46,320 nucleotides of DNA from a virus. Lineage: Duplodnaviria > Heunggongvirae > Uroviricota > Caudoviricetes. Positions 1 through 10,452 of the stretch are shown in pieces. The stretch lies in IMG/VR virus record IMGVR_UViG_2645727562_000022, positions 1 to 46,320 of that record. The stretch is one strand, 5' to 3'. Position numbers and translations under genes: made by a program. The notes below the pieces were generated by a model. The model saw nothing but the letters and a program-made list of their open reading frames with translations. It searched no databases and had not been told where the DNA came from. The first letter of the stretch is position 1. Each line of letters opens with the position of its first letter.

Positions 1-26
1 GGTTAACGTGCTAAAACAGAAGGGAA

Positions 27-1307
27 TTACACGGCTCTTAAAGTTGCATGGGGCACTGATGGGGCAAACTCACTCAATTTTGAGTTCAGAAGCGCAACCT
101 GAGCATCGTTATTTTCTGACATCCATTTTCCGTAAACCTGGAAAACCATCTGCGCATCAGCGTGACCCATTTGTGAAGCAATGAATGCCGGGTTAGCTCC
201 AGCCGTCAATGACCAGCAAGCATAAGTATGACGTGACTGATATGATTTCCGGTGACGAATTGCTGCGCGCTTGACTGCCGTATCCCAGGTCTGCCTGACC
301 GAATCGACCGTGAAGTGATCCCCACATAAACCCGTTCTGGAAGTTACGGATGGGAGAAAAACAAACGTGCATTTGTGCTTCTCTCTTTTGCCGTACTCTC
401 GCAAGTGAACATCAATCATGTGCTCTTTGCCAAGCCTGGTAATTTCAAGCTGGCTCTTCAGAGCTTCAATTGCAGGTTCGATAAGGTGTATTACCCTGTT
501 TGTTCCCGCCTGAGTCTTGGGAACGGTAAATTTATCCTGCGCCAGATTCCTCCTTATCATCATCGTGCCGGCCTTAATGTCGATATCCTCCCACCCCAAA
601 GCGCACAGCTCGCCCGGTCGAATTCCTGTGTAGACAGAAAGTGACCACATGTTTTTTGCTTGCTGACTACGACAAGCTTCAATGAGCCTGACAAACTCCT
701 CCCTTGATAGCGGGTCAGGAACCACTCGCGATTCTCTTAGTGGTGATATTCCCTTAAATGGTGTGTCATCGAGATAACCGTTTTCAACTCCAAACTGAAA
801 GATGGCGAAAAGGTTAGTCATGTAGTTATTGACCGTCACTGCAGAACGCCCTGGCTCAGTCACTACATACTGAGTTTTCGGAAGCTGATAACCGGTCAGC
901 AATTCCTTCCTTACCTCGAGAATCCTTTCTTTACTTATCGACGATGCGACCGTCTTCTCACCGAGAATGAGAAGAACGTTTTTGATAATCGTCCGGTATG
1001 TCTTAATCGATGTCGATGCGACATCAGTCTCTTTGAGAGATAAATATTTCTCTGCAAGCTCTCCTATGGTTAGCGCCTTACTCACCTCACCAAATCGCTG
1101 AAGGTTAGGGGAGTTTGGAAACTGTGATGCATAGTTGAAAGTTCCCGTCTTTACTGCGTAGACAATGCTTGTACGCAGCTCTCCGGCAATCTTCCTGTTC
1201 TTCGCCGTATCAGGTACACCAAGACTTTCCCTTACCCTGACACCGTTATAGATAAACCACAGGCGCAGCGTGCCCCCGTGGTTTTCAACCCCGGTTGGAT
1301 ACTTCAT
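27..1307 (-). CDS. int: Tyrosine integrase (lambda Int family)
   Basis: 426 aa ORF at the prophage end; C-terminal catalytic region with R..HxxR..Y-type residues (RHTYACW...MGHAD). Transcribed toward the left edge, as int is toward attL. Confidence 0.9.
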   Translation of the reverse strand: MKYPTGVENHGGTLRLWFIYNGVRVRESLGVPDTAKNRKIAGELRTSIVYAVKTGTFNYASQFPNSPNLQRFGEVSKALTIGELAEKYLSLKETDVASTSIKTYRTIIKNVLLILGEKTVASSISKERILEVRKELLTGYQLPKTQYVVTEPGRSAVTVNNYMTNLFAIFQFGVENGYLDDTPFKGISPLRESRVVPDPLSREEFVRLIEACRSQQAKNMWSLSVYTGIRPGELCALGWEDIDIKAGTMMIRRNLAQDKFTVPKTQAGTNRVIHLIEPAIEALKSQLEITRLGKEHMIDVHLREYGKREKHKCTFVFLPSVTSRTGLCGDHFTVDSVRQTWDTAVKRAAIRHRKSYQSRHTYACWSLTAGANPAFIASQMGHADAQMVFQVYGKWMSENNDAQVALLNSKLSEFAPSVPHATLRAV

Positions 1308-1339
1308 GCATCTTCCTCTTTGGTTAATCGAAGGCGTAT

Positions 1340-1588
1340 TTAAGCAGATTTCTTGCGGGGAATCGCGGGTTGCTGACGCTCAACCCATTTGTCGACTTCG
1401 TGGCGGTTGTAAAGGATAGGGGAGTTGTCCTTCGGCTGGCAGTCGCATGAGTAATGGCGGTACTCTTTACCCTCCATCCATGATGTTTCTCTGGCCAATC
1501 TGATCGCGTTCTTTGTCAGGCCGGTAATCGCCATCAAAACCTTCTCTGATACCCACTTATTGGGAACAAGCTGAATCATATCGCTCAT
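1340..1588 (-). CDS. xis: Excisionase-like small DNA-binding protein
   Basis: Small ORF directly upstream of int on the same strand. Start moved to internal ATG at 1588, which has GGAG 6 nt upstream; the ORF-track start at 1624 has no RBS. Confidence 0.55.
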   Translation of the reverse strand: MSDMIQLVPNKWVSEKVLMAITGLTKNAIRLARETSWMEGKEYRHYSCDCQPKDNSPILYNRHEVDKWVERQQPAIPRKKSA

Positions 1589-1651
1589 TGATTTCTCCAT
1601 TGCGGAAAAGGTGATTAGCCTCATCGAGTGTGAGGCTGTGTGATTCCATGG

Positions 1652-1882
1652 TTAGTTTCCTGTGCTACCTAGAAGCAAAGTGGCGTTGCCATTTCTGTCT
1701 CGATAAAGCTCGAAGTATTCAGTCCATTTGTTTTCTTCTGTTGCTGGAGCTGGCGTGAAATCTCTGATATCGATGTTCCCACCCTGATCGTAGTAACCAG
1801 TACCGTTTGAGTGGTGGATAACCTGCACGATTGCATCTTGTGGCAGGGTTTGTAGCCATTCAATAAATGCTTTTACGTCCAT
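1652..1882 (-). CDS. Hypothetical protein (76 aa)
   Basis: ORF with GGAGA RBS upstream of ATG; sits between a terminator and xis. Confidence 0.5.
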   Translation of the reverse strand: MDVKAFIEWLQTLPQDAIVQVIHHSNGTGYYDQGGNIDIRDFTPAPATEENKWTEYFELYRDRNGNATLLLGSTGN

Positions 1883-1895
1883 TATCTATCTCCAA

Positions 1896-1918
1896 TAAAA
1901 AACCGCCATTGCGGCGGT
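1896..1918 (-). terminator. Rho-independent terminator (minus strand)
   Basis: Stem ACCGCC / GGCGGT with 5-nt loop; on the minus strand it is followed by TTTTTTATT. Immediately after the stop of the 181-aa gene. Confidence 0.6.
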
Positions 1919-2464
1919 CTAGTCGATGCGGATGTGTGGAATCTTTCCGTTATTCAGCAGGTGGTAAATCTGCATCAGGTCGTACAGTCCATGCGCGTGG
2001 ACTAATCCTTCCTTCAAAGCCTCAATGATCTCATCGCGCTTCTTATCTGCTTCTGAGCGGATAGGGCGCAAACTACCTGGAACTAAGCAGACAGCCATTC
2101 CACCGCCATTTTCATCCCAATAGCAGACGGCAACATCATGTTCATCAGTGGTTGTTTTATGAGCTACAACTTCAAGTTCCTGACCATCCTGCGGTATAAT
2201 TTCTTCGTTGTAGTCATATCGCTCGTTGTAGAAAAATGAAACTTTCGAGCCCACCGGAGGCAATCCCTCGCCATCCCATTCAATAGGCTCAAATTTCCAC
2301 GCACTTTCAATCACGTGATATTCTCCTCCATCAGGCATAATTCCTTTCCATGCGGGAGCTAAATAATCACTTGGTTCTTTGGTCAAGACAAAGAATGGCT
2401 TTGCCCAATTATTGCATTTACCTACTGGAATAAAACGACCGATAATTTTGTTATCCACATTCAT
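1919..2464 (-). CDS. Hypothetical protein (181 aa), accessory cargo
   Basis: ORF with no motif I recognise; 5-nt gap to the upstream small gene; flanked by terminators. Confidence 0.5.
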   Translation of the reverse strand: MNVDNKIIGRFIPVGKCNNWAKPFFVLTKEPSDYLAPAWKGIMPDGGEYHVIESAWKFEPIEWDGEGLPPVGSKVSFFYNERYDYNEEIIPQDGQELEVVAHKTTTDEHDVAVCYWDENGGGMAVCLVPGSLRPIRSEADKKRDEIIEALKEGLVHAHGLYDLMQIYHLLNNGKIPHIRID

Positions 2465-2468
2465 CTCC

Positions 2469-2669
2469 TTACGCTAATTTCTTATACACGCGAGGCTCAT
2501 CAACAGTAGCCGCGCGAAGTTCGTGTTCGTGATGCACCGAGTAGTTGCCGTCATCCCAACGCACCCATGCTTTCGGATGGTCGCTATCCGGCTCAATCTG
2601 GCTCTCAACCATCCCTCTGATGCCTCCAGACTTAAGCTGCACTAACGCGCCCACAGCAAATTTAGCCAT
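2469..2669 (-). CDS. Small protein, DUF2158/YodC-like
   Basis: MAKFAVGALVQLKSGG... N-terminus resembles the DUF2158 family; start set at ATG 2669 with GAGGG RBS rather than the GTG at 2726. Confidence 0.45.
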   Translation of the reverse strand: MAKFAVGALVQLKSGGIRGMVESQIEPDSDHPKAWVRWDDGNYSVHHEHELRAATVDEPRVYKKLA

Positions 2670-2770
2670 AACAAGCCCTCTGACATGTGAATGAGTGAAG
2701 AGATAGCCGCCCATGCAATAAGGCACGCTATGGCGACCAGGATAAGGTTGTATTGCATGGTGACTCCGAT

Positions 2771-2799
2771 AAAGAAAAACCCGCTGGCTGCGGGTTTGT
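2771..2799 (-). terminator. Rho-independent terminator (bidirectional-looking hairpin)
   Basis: Stem AACCCGC / GCGGGTT with loop TGGCT, A-run on one side and T-run on the other; lies after the stop of the 2819-3061 gene. Confidence 0.55.
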
Positions 2800-2818
2800 T
2801 ATGCGTCCAATGGGGAGG

Positions 2819-3061
2819 TCATATTTGTATCTCCGGCAGCCTAAAACCTTCCATATCTTCAGCGCGGATACATGGAGACAGACAGTCAGCGAATGCTAGA
2901 GTGCCATCCAGGAGAATGATGAACGCCCATCCTTTAAAGAGATTCTCGCTACACCATTCGACGCGCATCGGCACATCAGGCATAGACGCAGGAAATACAG
3001 GATAATGCTCAGCAAGCCACTCCATGGCATCGCATCGGCTAAGGTGATATTTGTCGTACAT
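2819..3061 (-). CDS. Hypothetical protein (80 aa)
   Basis: ATG at 3059-3061 overlaps the upstream TGA stop (TGATG), indicating translational coupling; ORF-track start at 3097 rejected. Confidence 0.45.
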   Translation of the reverse strand: MYDKYHLSRCDAMEWLAEHYPVFPASMPDVPMRVEWCSENLFKGWAFIILLDGTLAFADCLSPCIRAEDMEGFRLPEIQI

Positions 3062-3687
3062 CACGCCTCCTGCTGCGGTGCTGCTGGTAATATCCACTCC
3101 ATCCAGTGCGTAACATCACCGGTTAGCCAGCCACCCCCATTTTCTTTTACGAAGGTATTATCGCCATCGTAATAACCTGCGTGCACGCCAACGATATCGA
3201 AATAATAAAATACCTTTTGTCCTTTCTTTGGCATCCGCTCACTGCAAGCCACCCAACCATCCGTAATCGTCGGAGAGTTACCATCGGCACCCTGAAGCAT
3301 GGCGGCGCGGCAGGCGTTCCAAAGTTCACCAGCGAAATCACAGGCCTTTTCTCCGCCACCACATGCCTGACAGAGGACCTCGTAAACACTGTCGGGGATA
3401 TCATTAGGCACAGATACCGGCGCTGGAGGGGCGGTGCGATACAGAAGCACATCACCCATCTCTGTTCTGGATGCTGGCCACACGTCTGCATCGGAGCCAG
3501 ATTTGAGATAATCAAGATTTGACTGGTCGATGACGCACACTGGCTCCGCTTCGAGCGATGCCAGCGCGATACGTAGCGCCGCCAGGGTGTTGCTGTCGTC
3601 TTCGTCCAGACCGAACGGGATTTCATCGCGGGCAGCTTCCATGTCGGCAATTTTCTGCTGCAGCCATTGTTTGTTAATCGAGATCAT
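3061..3687 (-). CDS. Prophage protein with DUF551-like C-terminal domain
   Basis: C-terminus GWVACSERMP...VTHWMEWILP resembles the DUF551 hallmark (W..ER.P ... THWMPLP) common in lambdoid early-left regions. Confidence 0.55.
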   Translation of the reverse strand: MISINKQWLQQKIADMEAARDEIPFGLDEDDSNTLAALRIALASLEAEPVCVIDQSNLDYLKSGSDADVWPASRTEMGDVLLYRTAPPAPVSVPNDIPDSVYEVLCQACGGGEKACDFAGELWNACRAAMLQGADGNSPTITDGWVACSERMPKKGQKVFYYFDIVGVHAGYYDGDNTFVKENGGGWLTGDVTHWMEWILPAAPQQEA

Positions 3688-3690
3688 GGG

Positions 3691-3858
3691 TTATCCTCTC
3701 AGCGCCATAGTGTGCATTTCCAGCTCAGCAATCCGCTTGTCTTTGGCTTCCAGCTCATCCAGCAGCGCCAGCACGTCTCGAGTTTCCACGAACATATTGT
3801 GGTCGAAGTTATCGACCGCTTTCGCTGCGGCTGATTTCAGTTTATCGATGTTGCTCAT
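3691..3858 (-). CDS. Small hypothetical protein (55 aa, predicted helical)
   Basis: Not in the ORF track (<60 aa). ATG at 3856-3858 overlaps the upstream TGA (ATGA); GGAGGT RBS; translation MSNIDKLKSAAAKAVDNFDHNMFVETRDVLALLDELEAKDKRIAELEMHTMALRG. Confidence 0.4.
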   Translation of the reverse strand: MSNIDKLKSAAAKAVDNFDHNMFVETRDVLALLDELEAKDKRIAELEMHTMALRG

Positions 3859-4361
3859 TGGGCGTTACCTCCATCATTCGCGAACTCACCATGAATCTCT
3901 GCCCGAGCTTTTTTGATCGCCTCAGCATCATCCTGCTTATCAGAAAAGGAGCCAACGTTGATGTCCTTTCCTTCATACATAATTGATGCCTTCCATTTGT
4001 TAGATTTCCGGCACCATGAAACGCCCTTTATCCCGGAAGTATTGGTGGACTGTATCTTCCTGTTAAGCGCGTTTTGCCTTAAAGAGACAATACGAAGATT
4101 GGAGATCCTGTTGTCTTTCCTGTCACCATTAATGTGGTCCATTATTCCTTCTGGAAACTCTCCTTATACGTATAGCCATGCGAGCCTATGAGAAAGATAA
4201 ACAACGCCGTCAACGCAAAACCGCAGGTAGCCATGTGAGTTAGTTGTTCCGGCGATATCGCCTTTAATGGCTCTGCTGGATGTAGACTTTATTCTTGTGA
4301 AGACGCCTGTATAGCTGTTGTAGTGAAATAACTCCTTAAGCCGAGATTGAGTTAGCGTCAT
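3855..4361 (-). pseudogene. HNH homing endonuclease (AP2-domain type) interrupted by an in-frame TAA
   Basis: ORFs 4164-4385 and 3855-4142 are in the same frame, separated by TAA at 4164-4166. Read-through gives [31 protein letters not shown], colinear with the intact paralog at 8610-9095 where the stop position is a Tyr. Confidence 0.65.
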
Positions 4362-4534
4362 TTCTTCGCCCTCTGGTTTAACCACGCTGTCAGGAATTTG
4401 TTCTCGTTCACGCTTGGGAATGAGTTTTTCTTCAGCATTTCTTCGCGTGGGATGTCGTTGATGGGTTTGAATCGGTGGCGTGCGACAATCTCCTCAGGGG
4501 AGAAGCCCTGAAGTGCGCATGAGTTTCCAATCAT
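4358..4534 (-). CDS. Small hypothetical protein (58 aa)
   Basis: Internal ATG at 4534 with GAGG RBS; its TGA stop overlaps the HNH ATG (ATGA). Preferred over the 109-aa ORF-track reading 4358-4687. Confidence 0.35.
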   Translation of the reverse strand: MIGNSCALQGFSPEEIVARHRFKPINDIPREEMLKKNSFPSVNENKFLTAWLNQRAKK

Positions 4535-4544
4535 GATTTGAGCC

Positions 4545-4751
4545 TCAGTTTCGAATGCGGCGTAAACTAATGCCTTCGCGCTTGCACATCTGGCGAAGGG
4601 ATTCGTATGAACGGTTGATTTGTCTTGCGATGAGTTTTGAGTGAATGGTTCCGGCAATTTCCCTGACTGATTCGATATCAGATTCACCCCATGGCCGTCC
4701 GTGGCTAAGTTGGTTGGAGCGTAGTTCGTAGGTGTGTTTACGCTTGTACAT
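4545..4751 (-). CDS. Hypothetical protein (68 aa)
   Basis: ATG at 4751 with AGGTG RBS 4 nt upstream, tightly packed after the Gp157-like gene. Confidence 0.4.
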   Translation of the reverse strand: MYKRKHTYELRSNQLSHGRPWGESDIESVREIAGTIHSKLIARQINRSYESLRQMCKREGISLRRIRN

Positions 4752-4758
4752 TGCGCAC

Positions 4759-5241
4759 CTACTTGATTAGCAGCGTTGGCTTACCGAGCTTGAGTGATGC
4801 GCCAGGAATAGCTTTACCGGCCTTGAGTTGATGCTTGATGGCTAGCTTGTCGGCCTTAACTGTTGTTATGTATTCAACGTACTCAGGAGGCAGGGAACCT
4901 TCATCTGTGATTTCAACTGACTCCACAGGAGCGCGAACTGTGACCTGATGGATGCCAGCGCGAATCTTTTTCTTACCAATCATCTCAAGCGAATTAGCGA
5001 TGTAGGTCATGATGTTATCGACCTTGTTGTTGATTACGGCAGCGCGTTCATTGAGTGCCTTAGCCTCTTCCTTGAGGCGCTCGGCATATCCGGTTTCGTT
5101 CTTACAGATAGCAAGCAACTGCTCTATCTTATCTGTAAGCTCGCCTTCCATGCCTTCCAGCGTGTCGGCTATCTCGTCTGCTTCAAAGTCGGCATCCATC
5201 AGCCGGGCGTAACCGTTGGCAATCTCATACAGTTTGCTCAC
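4759..5241 (-). CDS. Siphovirus Gp157-family protein (RecT-associated)
   Basis: 160-aa acidic protein immediately downstream of recT, the usual pairing; sequence resembles the Gp157 family. Confidence 0.55.
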   Translation of the reverse strand: MSKLYEIANGYARLMDADFEADEIADTLEGMEGELTDKIEQLLAICKNETGYAERLKEEAKALNERAAVINNKVDNIMTYIANSLEMIGKKKIRAGIHQVTVRAPVESVEITDEGSLPPEYVEYITTVKADKLAIKHQLKAGKAIPGASLKLGKPTLLIK

Positions 5242-6136
5242 TGGTCACCTCCAGCTTTGCCTTGCACTCTGCATAGATGGCCTGAACGTTCTGCTGCAGC
5301 TTCATGCCTGCAGTGCGTTTGTAGGCGTCAGCAAACACACGTTTAAGGTCATCCATGGTTTCAGCATGAGCCATATCATCGCAAAGCGCCTGAATGTGCT
5401 CGATGACTTCCTGCTGGCGTTTGCGCTCATCCTCGCATATATCTTCCTCTGACTTATGCGGCATGACCGGCTCAGTCCAGACACCTTCTTCTTCGTTCAG
5501 AACGTGAATTGCGCTATCAAGGCGAGAGGCTTTAGGCCAATACTTGCTTGCTCGCTTGACCACTGTCTTTCGCGCCATCTCATTCCAGTGATTAACCCAC
5601 GGGCCCTTATCGCTGAATGCGGCCTTGCTCGTCTTCCTGACAGCCTCAATTTCTGCAAGGCTCATCTCTTCCGTAAGGTAATCACCTGCAGGAGTCTTAA
5701 CCGTGCAGTAAACGCCAACGATGTCACCACGGTCACCAAAAGCGTTGTATTTGTGTGTAGGGGCCTTATCTAGGCCGTTTGACTCATAGGTGTCGTTAGC
5801 ATGAACAAGCTTTGCCTGACCCCATGAGATAACCCCTGACTCCATGGCGATATGCAGCAATCCCATGTAACTGATATCAAGGCACACCATACCGTCGCGA
5901 GGAACCAGATAAGCCAGCTTGCTTGCCGGGTTTAACGTGATGCCAATGGCCGCTACGTTGATGATTGCGTTCTGTGCGCTGGTAGGATTTGATAGGGCGG
6001 TTTTAGCGAGGAAGTCATTCTTCTGGAAGTACTGAATTGCGAACTGACTTTCCTTAGCCCATGTGACTGTCTGCTCTGTCAGTGCTCCACAGAATAGCGG
6101 CTCCTGCTGTTTAACGAACTCAACGATATTGCTCAT
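5225..6136 (-). CDS. recT: RecT-family single-strand annealing recombinase
   Basis: GPWVNHWNEMARKTVVKRASKYWP matches the conserved RecT block (GPWVTHWEEMAKKTAIRRLFKYLP in Rac RecT). Confidence 0.9.
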   Translation of the reverse strand: MSNIVEFVKQQEPLFCGALTEQTVTWAKESQFAIQYFQKNDFLAKTALSNPTSAQNAIINVAAIGITLNPASKLAYLVPRDGMVCLDISYMGLLHIAMESGVISWGQAKLVHANDTYESNGLDKAPTHKYNAFGDRGDIVGVYCTVKTPAGDYLTEEMSLAEIEAVRKTSKAAFSDKGPWVNHWNEMARKTVVKRASKYWPKASRLDSAIHVLNEEEGVWTEPVMPHKSEEDICEDERKRQQEVIEHIQALCDDMAHAETMDDLKRVFADAYKRTAGMKLQQNVQAIYAECKAKLEVTSEQTV

Positions 6137-6441
6137 GCTGCTTCCCCAAATGTGTGTCTGCGCAGGAATATGCCAATCGCATACTCAACTTCTACGCGCG
6201 GTCTGAATATGTCCCACATAACCTCACCAGCGAATTCCTGATAATTGCAGTCCTCTTCGCCAAGCCACTCGACTGCATGTTTTGTGTAATCGTCAGGCCT
6301 ATGTGATTCCAGCATGTTGAGCACCGGCCGCATGTTCTCGCACAGCATCTCAACTTGCTTATCAATCGCCGCATTGTCATCGTCGTTAAAGCTCGCGATG
6401 ATTTGCTTAATCTCTGTTTTGTCTGTCATCGTCAGGCGCAT
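6133..6441 (-). CDS. Hypothetical protein (102 aa)
   Basis: ORF overlapping the recT start by 4 nt; function unknown. Confidence 0.45.
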   Translation of the reverse strand: MRLTMTDKTEIKQIIASFNDDDNAAIDKQVEMLCENMRPVLNMLESHRPDDYTKHAVEWLGEEDCNYQEFAGEVMWDIFRPRVEVEYAIGIFLRRHTFGEAA

Positions 6442-6550
6442 TTTGCGTCTCCTGTAGAATCTGCTCTTTCATTTCTTCTTCAAGAAGGTCACTCATGAGA
6501 CGAATAAATGCAGGGTCGTCCCATTTTCGCTTTGGAATGTTTTCAATCAC
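6407..6550 (-). CDS. Small hypothetical ORF (47 aa from GTG, or 29 aa from ATG 6496)
   Basis: GTG overlaps the stop of the cIII-like ORF (GTGA); acidic C-terminus. Weak call. Confidence 0.25.
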   Translation of the reverse strand: MIENIPKRKWDDPAFIRLMSDLLEEEMKEQILQETQNAPDDDRQNRD

Positions 6551-6717
6551 GGCTGCACCTTCTGATTCAGAAACTCAACCAGACGCTCGAGCAAGCTCTT
6601 AACGCGAGGCTGCTTGAAGTCTGCGCCGGTAATGATGTTCTGGCGTGAATGCTGGACGGATAAGATAGGGTCGAAAGGGCGAACCGATGCCGCCCCTGCA
6701 ATAGCGAACTGTTGCAT
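6547..6717 (-). CDS. CIII-like small protein (putative FtsH inhibitor)
   Basis: 56 aa with AAGGAG RBS 6 nt upstream. MQQFAIAGAA... and ...SLLERLVEFLNQ resemble lambda CIII (MQYAIAGW..., ESLLERITRKL...ILNQ); position matches cIII. Confidence 0.45.
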   Translation of the reverse strand: MQQFAIAGAASVRPFDPILSVQHSRQNIITGADFKQPRVKSLLERLVEFLNQKVQP

Positions 6718-6785
6718 GGTGTGCTCCTTTTAAATTGATTGGCATAGCGAAAACACCTCGAATGAAGTGCTATGGATATGCGGTT

Positions 6786-6812
6786 AAAAAAATGCCCGAC
6801 ATAAGCCGGGCA
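6786..6812 (-). terminator. Rho-independent terminator (minus strand)
   Basis: Stem TGCCCG / CGGGCA with 8-nt loop, followed on the minus strand by TTTTTTT. Confidence 0.6.
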
Positions 6813-6929
6813 AAGATGACAACAAGGGGGTATTAATCAGAACATCATCTATCGTCTCCTTTAGATGATGCGAGCGAGATTGCTCACTATCGACTCTCTG
6901 TGAAAGTCGATAAGGTGCTTATTCGCTGC

Positions 6930-7256
6930 TTACATAATCATTCCTGCGACTACTACCATTTCGATGCCGCTATCTTTCAAGATGATTGCGGTTGAGTTAT
7001 CAACCTTGCTTTCACGCCATTTGCCAGCATCTGACCTTTCAGCTCCGCAATAAGAAAGCCAGTCATCGTTGCAGTCCTTAGGGTCACTGATTCTGACAAG
7101 CACACGAGATAGCGCCTTTTCGATATCTTCATCATCGACAGCGTTTGTGTAATTGCCGTGAGACAATTTCAGATCAGCGACCTCATCTTCGTTAGCGTCA
7201 AAAACGTAGATATCAGTCGATTCCGGTACGTTTTCATAAACCATTAAAACTTTCAT
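6930..7256 (-). CDS. Hypothetical acidic protein (108 aa)
   Basis: ATG at 7256 preceded by AGAGGTG RBS; the ORF-track GTG at 7262 lies inside that RBS. Confidence 0.5.
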   Translation of the reverse strand: MKVLMVYENVPESTDIYVFDANEDEVADLKLSHGNYTNAVDDEDIEKALSRVLVRISDPKDCNDDWLSYCGAERSDAGKWRESKVDNSTAIILKDSGIEMVVVAGMIM

Positions 7257-7276
7257 ATTCACCTCTGTGGCTTGCT

Positions 7277-7303
7277 GCCAAAAGAAGGCCGACTAGGCGG
7301 CCT
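7277..7303 (-). terminator. Rho-independent terminator in the leftward early operon (tL-like)
   Basis: Stem AGGCCG / CGGCCT with loop ACTAGG, followed on the minus strand by TTCTTTTGG; 12 bp from the IS left end. Confidence 0.5.
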
Positions 7304-7377
7304 AGTCAACTTTCTGAATCGCCACGGGTTTAACAGACACCTCAGAGTCATTTAAGATGACTTAAAGAGAGGTGCCC

Positions 7378-7656
7378 ATGAGCGGTAAGCGTTATCCTGA
7401 AGAGTTTAAAATTGAAGCAGTCAAACAGGTTGTTGATCGTGGTCATTCTGTTTCCAGTGTTGCAACACGTCTCGATATCGCCACTCACAGTCTTTACGCC
7501 TGGATAAAGAAGTACGGCCCGGATTCTTCCACTCATAATGAACAGTCAGATGCTCAGGCCGAGATCCGCCGTCTTCAGAAAGAGTTGAAGCGGGTTACGG
7601 ACGAACGGGACATATTAAAAAAAGCCGCGGCGTACTTCGCAAAGCTGTCCGACTGA
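7378..7656 (+). CDS. IS3-family transposase OrfA (HTH)
   Basis: MSGKRYPEEFKIEAVKQV...ILKKAAAYFAK is typical of IS3-family OrfA; ATG at 7378 with GAGAGG RBS (ORF track begins at GTG 7372). Confidence 0.85.
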   Translation: MSGKRYPEEFKIEAVKQVVDRGHSVSSVATRLDIATHSLYAWIKKYGPDSSTHNEQSDAQAEIRRLQKELKRVTDERDILKKAAAYFAKLSD

Positions 7657-8525
7657 GGTACGCCTTTATCCGCGACAACAGCCGTTGCTGGCCTGTTCGT
7701 TTGCTCTGTCGGGTTCTGGATGTCCATCCGAGTGGATTTTATTTCTGGCTTCAGCAGCCACATTCGCAGCGTCACCAGACAGATCAGATGCTGACCGGGC
7801 AAATCAAACAGTTCTGGCTTGAGTCTGGCTGCGTCTATGGTTATCGCAAGATCCATCTCGATCTGCGTGATACCGGACAGCAGTGCGGAGTGAACCGGGT
7901 CTGGCGGCTGATGAAGCGTGCCGGAATAAAAGCTCAGGTTGGGTACCGTAGCCCACGAGCACGTAAAGGCGAAGCCAGTATCGTGACACCCAACAGGCTC
8001 CAGCGGCAGTTCAATCCGGACTCACCGGATGAGCGTTGGGTGACGGACATAACCTACATCCGAACCCACGAAGGCTGGCTGTATCTGGCCGTGGTGGTTG
8101 ACCTGTTCTCCCGAAAAGTTATCGGCTGGTCAATGCAACCCCGCATGACAAAAGAGATTGTCCTGAACGCCTTACTTATGGCGGTGTGGAGGCGTAATCC
8201 TCAAAAGCAGGTACTGGTTCACTCTGATCAGGGTAGTCAGTACACGAGCCATGAGTGGCAGTCGTTCCTGAAATCACACGGTCTGGAAGGCAGCATGAGT
8301 CGTCGCGGTAACTGCCACGACAACGCGGTTGCGGAAAGCTTTTTCCAGCTACTGAAACGCGAACGGATTAAGAAAAGGATCTACGGAACGAGAGACGAAG
8401 CCAGAAGCGATATTTTTGATTATATCGAAATGTTTTATAACAGTAAGCGTCGGCATGGTTCGAGCGAGCAGATGCCACCGGCTGAATATGAAAACCTATA
8501 TTATCAACGGCTCAGAAGTGTCTAG
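7617..8525 (+). CDS. IS3-family transposase OrfB (DDE), expressed as OrfAB by -1 frameshift
   Basis: Slippery A-run at 7617-7623; the -1 frame continues KKSRGVLRKA... into the 274-aa ORF, which has a DDE catalytic triad; the standalone ORF begins at TTG. Confidence 0.8.
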   Translation, partial: KKSRGVLRKAVRLRYAFIRDNSRCWPVRLLCRVLDVHPSGFYFWLQQPHSQRHQTDQMLTGQIKQFWLESGCVYGYRKIHLDLRDTGQQCGVNRVWRLMKRAGIKAQVGYRSPRARKGEASIVTPNRLQRQFNPDSPDERWVTDITYIRTHEGWLYLAVVVDLFSRKVIGWSMQPRMTKEIVLNALLMAVWRRNPQKQVLVHSDQGSQYTSHEWQSFLKSHGLEGSMSRRGNCHDNAVAESFFQLLKRERIKKRIYGTRDEARSDIFDYIEMFYNSKRRHGSSEQMPPAEYENLYYQRLRSV

Positions 8526-8609
8526 ATTATCCGTGGCGATTCATTCCATGCCTTACACTCGTTAAGATGCGAACACATGGAATGTGATATCTCTGTTGCA
8601 ATGCAAATC

Positions 8610-9095
8610 TCATCCTGCATTGGAGAAATCTCCGTGAAGATTTTTAGCGGCTATGCAATATGCTTTATGGGCATCCTCTGGGTTATCAAACACACCAAGA
8701 TGATGCTTTATTCCATTTGCCCGTATTTGACCAACCCACTTACGCTGACGTTTTGAGTAGTAAACTCCTTTGTACCCGCAGCCATTTTTTTGAGCTGACC
8801 TGTTTCTGCTGTTTTCTGCCAGCGTCGCAAGCCTGAGGTTGCAAATTCTGTTGTCTGTGCGGTTACCATTTATGTGATCAATAACGTCAGGTGGCCAGAA
8901 TCCATAAGTAATTAGCCAAGCTAGTCTGTGTGCGAAATATTTTACTCCGTTTATCTCTATAGCAACGTGTCTTGTCATATCCCTAGTCCCTGCACGCTCT
9001 AGCGTTGATCTCTTTCCAAGGCCGGGCTTCCATTTGAACAACCCAGTATCAGGGTTATATTCGAGAAGTGAATTTACCTCTTCTAAATTAACCAT
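8610..9095 (-). CDS. HNH homing endonuclease with AP2 domain (intact)
   Basis: YFAHRLAWL...IDHINGNRTDNRICNLR is the HNH_3 motif, followed by an AP2-like GYKGVYYSKRQRKWVGQI; start overlaps the N stop (TAATG). Confidence 0.8.
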   Translation of the reverse strand: MVNLEEVNSLLEYNPDTGLFKWKPGLGKRSTLERAGTRDMTRHVAIEINGVKYFAHRLAWLITYGFWPPDVIDHINGNRTDNRICNLRLATLAENSRNRSAQKNGCGYKGVYYSKRQRKWVGQIRANGIKHHLGVFDNPEDAHKAYCIAAKNLHGDFSNAG

Positions 9096-9750: not shown

Positions 9751-10452
9751 TTAGGGGAGGTTGGTGATTTTGGCGTCTACAACAACGCCGATAATGCGGC
9801 AATTCCCATTCACTTCAATCATGGGATATTGCGGGTTGAGAGGCTTCAAGAAGCGTCTTCCTGCGTCTATGACAAGCTTCTTGAAGGTGGCTTCATTCTC
9901 GCTATCCAATTTAGCTACAACCAACTTTCCATTGATGGGCTCTACTTCTGGATCAACGAGAATAACCATGCCTTCCGGGATACTCAGGCCGACAGGTGAT
10001 GTCATTGAATCACCCTTAACATCCAGCCAGAACGAGTTCTCTGAGCAATCTATATTTGTTTCATACCAGCGGTCTATAGCCCGCTTATGATAAGGTTCTA
10101 CGGCTTCCATCCATTCACCTGCACTTACCCAGCTGATTACGGGATAGCTTCCCTTCGGCTCATTCTTTCCATGGAAACTTACGTTTGTAGCGGAAGATTT
10201 ATCCCTAATAGTGCCGTCAGCATTGACCTCGAAACTCCGAAGCCCAAGGTAAGTCATTATCTTGGCTATATCCTCAAGGCTTGGCTCGCGTCTAGCGTTA
10301 AGCCAATGGCTAACTGCCCCCTTTGTAATGCCGAGGTGTTCTGCCAGCGTCTCCTGAGATACGCCGCGCCCCTTCATGAGGTCTTTGGCTAGTTCATACC
10401 ATTTCATATTCATGTCCTGATCATACGAACTGTATTCCTTTTTGCGAGACAC
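9751..10452 (-). CDS. cI: CI-type prophage repressor (HTH plus S24 autopeptidase domain)
   Basis: N-terminal HTH (VSQETLAEHLGITKGAVSHWLN) and C-terminal LexA-like domain with GDSM serine and a downstream lysine; GTG start abutting the operator, consistent with a leaderless transcript. Confidence 0.85.
   Translation of the reverse strand: MSRKKEYSSYDQDMNMKWYELAKDLMKGRGVSQETLAEHLGITKGAVSHWLNARREPSLEDIAKIMTYLGLRSFEVNADGTIRDKSSATNVSFHGKNEPKGSYPVISWVSAGEWMEAVEPYHKRAIDRWYETNIDCSENSFWLDVKGDSMTSPVGLSIPEGMVILVDPEVEPINGKLVVAKLDSENEATFKKLVIDAGRRFLKPLNPQYPMIEVNGNCRIIGVVVDAKITNLP

Follow-up and report, generated by a model that had tools for sequence, protein, structure and literature searches.

The stretch of DNA analysed here (46,320 nt, referred to below as the window) is a nearly complete lambdoid prophage. 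Besides an integrase and a cI-like repressor (Table 1), it carries a DnaB-like helicase, terminase, portal and tail genes, a pectate-lyase-like tailspike and an O-acyltransferase. The leftward early operon comprises genes for DUF551, an Ead-like protein, a broken HNH protein, DUF2737, Gp157 and RecT, followed by an IS3-family element and an intact HNH paralog. The broken gene can be placed in the early-left ('ea'/recombination) operon of what appears to be a lambdoid prophage of the Enterobacter cloacae complex.

Table 1. Coordinates of the features at the broken HNH-AP2 locus and elsewhere in the window.
Feature	Position	Strand	Remark
5' part of the broken HNH-AP2 gene, codons 1-65 and premature TAA	4164..4361	-	homologs start at ATG 4361
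Premature ochre TAA, codon 66	4164..4166	-	derived base is window 4164
3' part of the broken gene, codons 67-168 and TGA	3855..4163	-	
95-aa ORF, internal ATG (Met74) to natural stop	3855..4142	-	possible reinitiation product
Upstream DUF2737 gene, 58 aa	4358..4534	-	gene call on the identical NCBI contig
Downstream Ead/Ea22-like gene, 55 aa	3691..3858	-	ATG overlaps the HNH TGA (ATGA)
Intact paralog, 161-aa HNH_3 + AP2 protein	8610..9095	-	same leftward operon
IS3-family insertion sequence	7315..8543	+	between the intact paralog and the genes including broken HNH
Integrase	27-1307		
cI-like repressor	9751-10452		

A mechanical listing of open reading frames gives the broken gene as two pieces on the minus strand, 4164..4385 and 3855..4142. 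The likely true start is the ATG at 4361, inside the first piece, where the homologs begin with MTLTQ or MMLTQ. Past the TAA the frame is open (GEFPEGI) through to the TGA at 3857-3855, and the conceptual read-through from 4361 to 3855 is 168 aa long with exactly one internal stop. The 5' part covers the beta-sheet region at the N terminus and the greater part of the HRLAWLYV helix. The 3' part holds D75-H76, N84 and N97 together with an AP2-like DNA-binding domain (approximately residues 109-160), and two substitutions private to the window allele, H133D and A145D, both lie within it. On the upstream side, the TGA of the DUF2737 gene overlaps the HNH ATG as ATGA. The downstream Ead/Ea22-like gene has its own strong GGAGG Shine-Dalgarno sequence (-10.6 kcal/mol, 7-nt spacer).

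With Tyr placed at the stop, the read-through matched Pfam HNH_3 (PF13392) at residues 56-98 with 60 bits (E 1.7e-16), the gathering score serving as the cut-off being 24.8 bits. This match straddles codon 66, and neither of the real fragments holds the complete domain. The AP2 match of the window copy is weak (18 bits vs the cut-off of 33.3; residues 109-138), and that of the paralog at 8610-9095 exceeds the same cut-off with 36.1 bits. The read-through and the paralog are colinear from end to end (37% identity, E 3e-34), the stop standing opposite a Tyr. A protein database search with the read-through returned 1009 relatives, the best of them a 168-aa 'HNH endonuclease' of Enterobacter cloacae with 94% identity; identity to the intact 168-aa proteins of Enterobacter prophages ranges from 94 to 98%. 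Clustered at 90% identity, the intact 168-aa form comprises 72 sequences, which come from E. cloacae, E. hormaechei, E. roggenkampii, E. kobei, E. asburiae and others. The window's own fragments were absent from the protein collection. Because the domain match spans the stop and both the paralog and the homologs are colinear with the read-through, the two pieces belong to one gene. An earlier reading of this DNA (the first-pass annotation) had joined the two ORFs as lying in the same frame, parted only by the TAA, and had drawn on the colinearity with the paralog and its Tyr at the stop; the minus-strand layout, the open 168-codon frame and the alignment bear this out. It had also allowed for the halves proving to be unrelated genes, and the alignments gave the opposite result.

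The residues invariant in the family are Y14, G19, R59, W62, D75, H76, N84, N97, N100, G113 and A145. The catalytic-core residues D75, H76, N84 and N97, which are invariant in 69 aligned relatives, are all present in the window sequence. An AlphaFold2 model was obtained for the 94%-identical intact homolog (P0001) and not for the window's fragments (pLDDT 94, pTM 0.81). It contains N-terminal strands at 12-56, a helix at 57-66, a beta-beta-alpha-metal core made of the strands 73-76 and 89-92 and the helix 94-99, and a three-stranded sheet with a long helix at 114-160. In the same model, the stop position corresponds to the end of the helix 57-66, ahead of strand beta-1 (73-76). It separates the invariant R59 and W62 from D75, H76, N84 and N97, and the 65-aa product is without catalytic residues. 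The top PDB match of the model in Foldseek was I-HmuI (1u3e; probability 1.00, 94 columns, rmsd 2.9 A), followed by plant AP2/ERF domains (1gcc; rmsd 1.4 A, 49 columns). A search of the PDB by sequence likewise gave I-HmuI and nothing else (E 0.024; residues 50-106), and the two DH motifs coincide in that alignment. The locus is interpreted as a free-standing gene of the homing-endonuclease type, with I-HmuI-like HNH_3 and AP2 domains, for which nuclease activity is predicted.

The homology between the window and the related loci ends 15 nt past the HNH stop in 15 of 15 loci, and in all of them the first 15 nt of the Ead-like gene travel with the HNH cassette. Upstream, the homology ends either at -1 nt from the ATG or after approximately 124-137 nt of the DUF2737 tail. 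The neighbourhoods of the HNH gene differ, since it is found after DUF2737, after another HNH gene or after a DnaB region, and in related Enterobacter phages its place is taken by an EaE gene. An exact empty site, in which the DUF2737 stop would be fused to the Ead-like start, had no match in viral_contigs. The HNH gene behaves as an ORF-sized mobile cassette. When the locus was compared by megablast with 5,426 complete E. coli genomes and 50,697 phage records, the HNH gene was never matched. Only its flanks were (DUF2737 and the Ead-like start), in E. coli over 99 nt in two genomes.

The proteins of GCA_001265735.1 (JHRZ01000022.1), an NCBI record of this prophage, are labelled 'Escherichia coli' in NCBI. 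The cluster-mates of the integrase, the S24 peptidase (HumD family in UniRef), the HNH paralog and the Ead-like protein are all from Enterobacter. Probably, the source record is mislabelled or the prophage was recently acquired from Enterobacter. The IS element of the window has 38-nt imperfect terminal inverted repeats, an orfA starting from the ATG at 7379 and an orfB at 7701-8525, and seems to have a -1 frameshift organisation. An IS3-family element on an E. coli ECOR29 record matches it with 96.6% identity. Transcriptionally it is situated upstream of the broken HNH gene, with the intact paralog on one side and the RecT, Gp157 and broken HNH genes on the other. The element may be polar and may reduce both the expression of everything to its left, the broken gene included, and the selection acting on it.

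DNA of close relatives was obtained from NCBI, JGI, ENA, Logan, IMG/VR and metagenome contigs, some of the loci being the same contig reached through different collections. The 15 related loci represent 9 nucleotide alleles besides that of the window, of which eight have TAT at codon 66 and one has CAT; a stop occurs there in 0 of the 9. A degenerate exact pattern for TAA across codon 66 likewise had no match in viral_contigs or metagenome_contigs. The nearest allele (L010, an IMG/VR contig) is identical to the window at 496 of 507 nt, has TAT at codon 66, and encodes a protein identical to WP_039266253.1 of Enterobacter sp. FB. Since the related alleles carry TAT or CAT, and the nearest one TAT, the TAA of the window is a private derived change. 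It is a T>A transversion in the third codon position, at window base 4164 (A on the coding strand).

The first-pass annotation had explained the split by a one-base change from TAY to TAA and had proposed looking for TAT or TAC at this codon in related prophages. The alleles with TAT (8) and CAT (1) agree with this explanation, and only the third position needed to change. Its description of the stop as falling on a conserved tyrosine is correct in part. Across the wider family Tyr occupies the position in 44 of 69 sequences, a count that takes in the window row entered with Tyr restored, and the remainder have H, T, F or N. The tyrosine is best regarded as a majority residue and not as an invariant one.

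A single-base substitution is the minimal possible error, and the TAA allele is seen nowhere else in the viral and metagenome contig collections. It could be supposed from this that the TAA is a sequencing or assembly error and that the real gene is intact, with TAT. However, the window is 100% identical over positions 1-7687 to contig JHRZ01000022.1 of GCA_001265735.1, TAA included. The Logan contig SRR19671035_72 (40.6 kb, assembled from the SRA run SRR19671035) is also 100% identical over window 1691-5858 (4,168 bp) and carries the same CTATACGTATAAGGAGAG with the TAA. The NCBI and Logan records are separate assemblies, which may come from the same reads or the same isolate. As two separate assemblies carry the TAA, an assembly artefact is unlikely. 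In consensus assemblies, wrong substitutions are much less frequent than homopolymer indels, and the site GTATAAGG does not form a homopolymer. Moreover, other samples do contain real knock-outs of this gene, by nonsense mutation and by IS insertion. An error at the three bases of the stop, which the first-pass annotation had considered as a way for its reading to fail, is thus highly improbable.

A genuine stop might be bypassed in translation. The full-length protein would still be made in this case, either through ochre suppression by a host or phage suppressor tRNA or through programmed read-through of the TAA. The frame is indeed open across 168 codons except for one stop, but no tRNA genes were found in the 46-kb window, and no Rfam element matched there. 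TAA is also the commonest genuine stop in the window, terminating 22 of 47 sizeable ORFs (five of them in a TAAG context, as here), and the phage would harm itself if TAA were efficiently suppressed. Among the stop codons, UAA generally leaks least in enterobacteria. Sites of programmed recoding tend to be conserved, whereas the stop at codon 66 is conserved in no relative. Because the stop is private to one allele, programmed read-through or suppression is unsupported, and the expression by suppressor tRNA or read-through that the first-pass annotation had offered beside a recent pseudogene must be regarded as extremely improbable.

A second in-frame ochre codon (TAA CCC at 3688-3693) was considered as a possible sign of suppression and was rejected as an ordinary gene boundary. 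It lies between the 55-aa Ead/Ea22-like ORF and a 208-aa DUF551 ORF (3061-3687), which are in the same frame. The homologs of the 208-aa DUF551 protein start at their own Met as separate genes, and the 54-55-aa Ead-like ORF is widespread as a separate ORF. Some relatives (L041) instead have a single 295-aa Ead_Ea22+DUF551 protein of mosaic composition, and the alignment of the L041 fusion is weak and has many gaps.

It may also be asked whether the truncation is functional in itself. The 95-aa product running from Met74 to the end could arise by internal initiation or by termination-reinitiation. It would be a nuclease-dead, sequence-specific DNA-binding protein that could, for example, protect or repress the cognate site, an early step in the domestication of an AP2 domain. 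Termination-reinitiation is conceivable in bacterial translation when the next ATG lies 21 nt after a stop. This is the distance between the premature stop and the ATG at 4142, which is preceded by an AAGGA motif. From Met74 onwards the ORF is undamaged, with every catalytic-core residue still in it; the lesion at Tyr66 and another known at Tyr55 are both upstream of Met74 and leave it open. Gene callers choose the Met74 start even in an intact copy (L003). There are also precedents for homing-endonuclease AP2 domains being recruited as regulators that bind DNA (bioRxiv 10.64898/2026.02.23.707548; PMC10448857).

Several observations speak against such a product. The AAGGA motif pairs with the anti-Shine-Dalgarno sequence at -5.7 kcal/mol but lies only 2-3 nt from the ATG, which is a poor spacing. 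Met74 is not tied to truncation, as it is equally present in all intact close relatives and is replaced by Ile, Leu or Val in most of the wider family. According to the model of the intact homolog, the fragment would begin inside strand beta-1 and would be devoid of the N-terminal DNA-contacting region and the invariant helix. A145D affects an AP2 position that is invariant in 68 of 68 aligned relatives and is situated in a helix. The third knock-out known in this lineage, at codon 20, was caused by an IS and gives no hint that any one product was selected for, and each of the broken alleles is rare and young. The poor Shine-Dalgarno spacing, the presence of Met74 in intact relatives and A145D make a selected function of the fragment unlikely, and a functional truncation is quite doubtful on the whole. 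Of the internal-start product suggested by the first-pass annotation, the open Met74 frame stands; the poorly spaced Shine-Dalgarno sequence and the substitution at the invariant AP2 residue tell against its use.

A broader form of the same idea is that nuclease loss with the Met74 ORF kept may be repeatedly selected in resident prophages, termination-reinitiation then yielding a nuclease-dead 95-aa protein that binds DNA through AP2 and so shields the cognate site or regulates it. The probability of this is very low. If true, it would provide a snapshot of the route by which the AP2 domains of homing endonucleases become regulators.

The lengths of annotated proteins are a poor guide to the state of the gene. 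The gene call in the intact copy L003 (3027-3314) starts at Met74 and gives 95 aa, though the full 168-codon ORF is open. A 95-aa protein (P0187) may be a similar call on a contig with intact copies (L018/L019). The only gene call recorded for the window's HNH copy starts at Met128 and is 41 aa long. Gene-call lengths of 95 aa and 41 aa were considered as evidence of disruption and were rejected, the L003 call lying on an intact ORF. Surveys based on protein length would misjudge the number of truly disrupted copies.

Apart from the window, this gene lineage has suffered at least two further independent knock-outs. The first of these lesions is an ochre codon at Tyr55 (TAT>TAA at codon 55, with TAT kept at codon 66), present in L002:5944-5946, L004:1558-1560 and L012. 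These loci amount to two independent samples, since L002 and L012 are one contig of a JGI metagenome and L004 comes from a Logan run. The Tyr55 ochre allele is probably also the source of a 95-aa protein annotated in isolates of E. cloacae. In both L002 and L004, another HNH_3 gene (171 aa) lies upstream at a distance of a few hundred bases.

The other lesion is an IS3-family insertion at codon 20. In E. cloacae GCA_900075425.1 (FJXR01000028.1; L041:1-80), the right end of the element abuts this codon of the HNH gene. The terminal repeat ending in ...AGATTATCCGTGGCGATTCA is the same as that of the IS in the window, and the remaining HNH sequence is identical to the intact allele L003 at 450 of 450 nt. 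The 148-aa 'partial' proteins of E. asburiae (P0126) start at nearly the same residue as this junction and are located at contig ends. Together with the E. cloacae locus, they suggest that the insertion at codon 20 recurs or has spread. All three lesions (Y66*, Y55* and the IS at codon 20) are young. Another allele, found in a Pluralibacter MAG and an IMG/VR contig (L005:3337-3339 and L011:3337-3339), is intact and carries G113R at the family-invariant AP2 glycine. It may be functionally impaired while having no stop codon.

The ten alleles have a median dS of 0.41 and a median dN/dS of 0.05. By these sequence measures, the intact copies are clearly under strong purifying selection, and, with a dN/dS of about 0.05, they are presumably functional. 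The window allele has seven private changes, namely the stop, four synonymous substitutions, H133D and A145D. The replacement of the invariant Ala145 by Asp would be expected if the 3' part were no longer constrained, the counts being small: the four synonymous and two non-synonymous substitutions besides the stop are too few to prove relaxed constraint. The window copy contains neither indels nor further stops, and for this reason the inactivation is considered recent.

Since neither fragment holds the complete nuclease domain, the gene is most likely a pseudogene. The loss of nuclease activity is also most likely, judging by the interrupted domain. The change from TAT to TAA at codon 66 would end translation after 65 residues, inside HNH_3. 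The cut lies downstream of the helix with R59 and W62 and upstream of the D75-H76...N84...N97 core and the AP2 domain. Such a loss would represent the degeneration phase of the usual life cycle of homing endonucleases, possibly favoured by relaxed selection or by toxicity in the resident prophage, an evolutionary reason that we infer. Homing endonuclease genes reportedly decay once no empty sites are left to invade, as Goddard and Burt are said to have proposed in 1999. The three young lesions fit this established decay model as well as the published reading of the split HNH/AP2 pair of phage ICP1. The window copy is therefore very probably a recent pseudogene of a free-standing homing endonuclease gene, inactivated through the change of Tyr66 to ochre. 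This was the first of the readings given by the first-pass annotation, and the derived, private, single-base stop and the union of the two halves in one gene agree with it.

The finding is a case of ordinary decay in a well-known kind of mobile gene and is not a new mechanism. For annotation, it means that 3855-4142 and 4164-4385 should be recorded as one HNH-AP2 pseudogene, and not as two hypothetical proteins or a short 'HNH endonuclease'. A modest added value lies in the lineage itself, which evolves under a dN/dS of about 0.05 and yet shows three independent, very young knock-outs in Enterobacter prophages. This set of knock-outs is a clean small example of the cycle of gain, decay and loss expected for selfish nuclease genes.

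The combination of HNH and AP2 is a recognised homing endonuclease architecture in phages, cyanobacteria and protists, according to Magnani et al. 2004 as cited in PMC10448857. The structural counterpart of the window protein, I-HmuI of the Bacillus phage SPO1 (PDB 1U3E), shares with it an N-terminal beta-sheet region followed by the beta-beta-alpha-metal HNH core. The two proteins differ in that the gene for I-HmuI lies within a group I intron and its C-terminal DNA-binding region is helical/HTH, whereas the window protein is free-standing and ends in a domain of the AP2 type. The window copy further differs from it in being interrupted by a stop codon.

The domesticated AP2 regulators, such as CasPR, are nuclease-free proteins with an intact and constrained AP2 domain, whereas the window copy has Asp in place of the invariant Ala145. 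A CapR domain is a further requirement for CasPRs; Pfam detected no second DNA-binding domain in the read-through, and the window allele is private and young. Among close relatives, the Enterobacter orthologs (WP_039266253.1 of Enterobacter sp. FB and HDC4389194.1 of E. cloacae) have the same length, start, stop and flanking junctions. They differ in having TAT or CAT at codon 66 and Ala at position 145, where the window copy has TAA and Asp. The paralog in the window (WP_064759029.1) has the same HNH_3 + AP2 architecture and is encoded in the same operon on the same strand; it has Tyr at the aligned position and is intact. With only 37% identity, it belongs to a separate lineage and is not a recent duplicate.

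The gp115/gp116 HNH/AP2 pair of ICP1 has been read as a split, inactivated gene (PMC10448857). Like the window copy, it has two domains, is free-standing and occupies a mosaic boundary in a phage genome, and its lesion parts the nuclease from AP2. In ICP1 the lesion is a frameshift between the domains, whereas in the window it is a nonsense substitution inside HNH_3. ICP1 also has divergent 'IPA-HNH' domains, in contrast to the window protein, which matches the canonical HNH_3.
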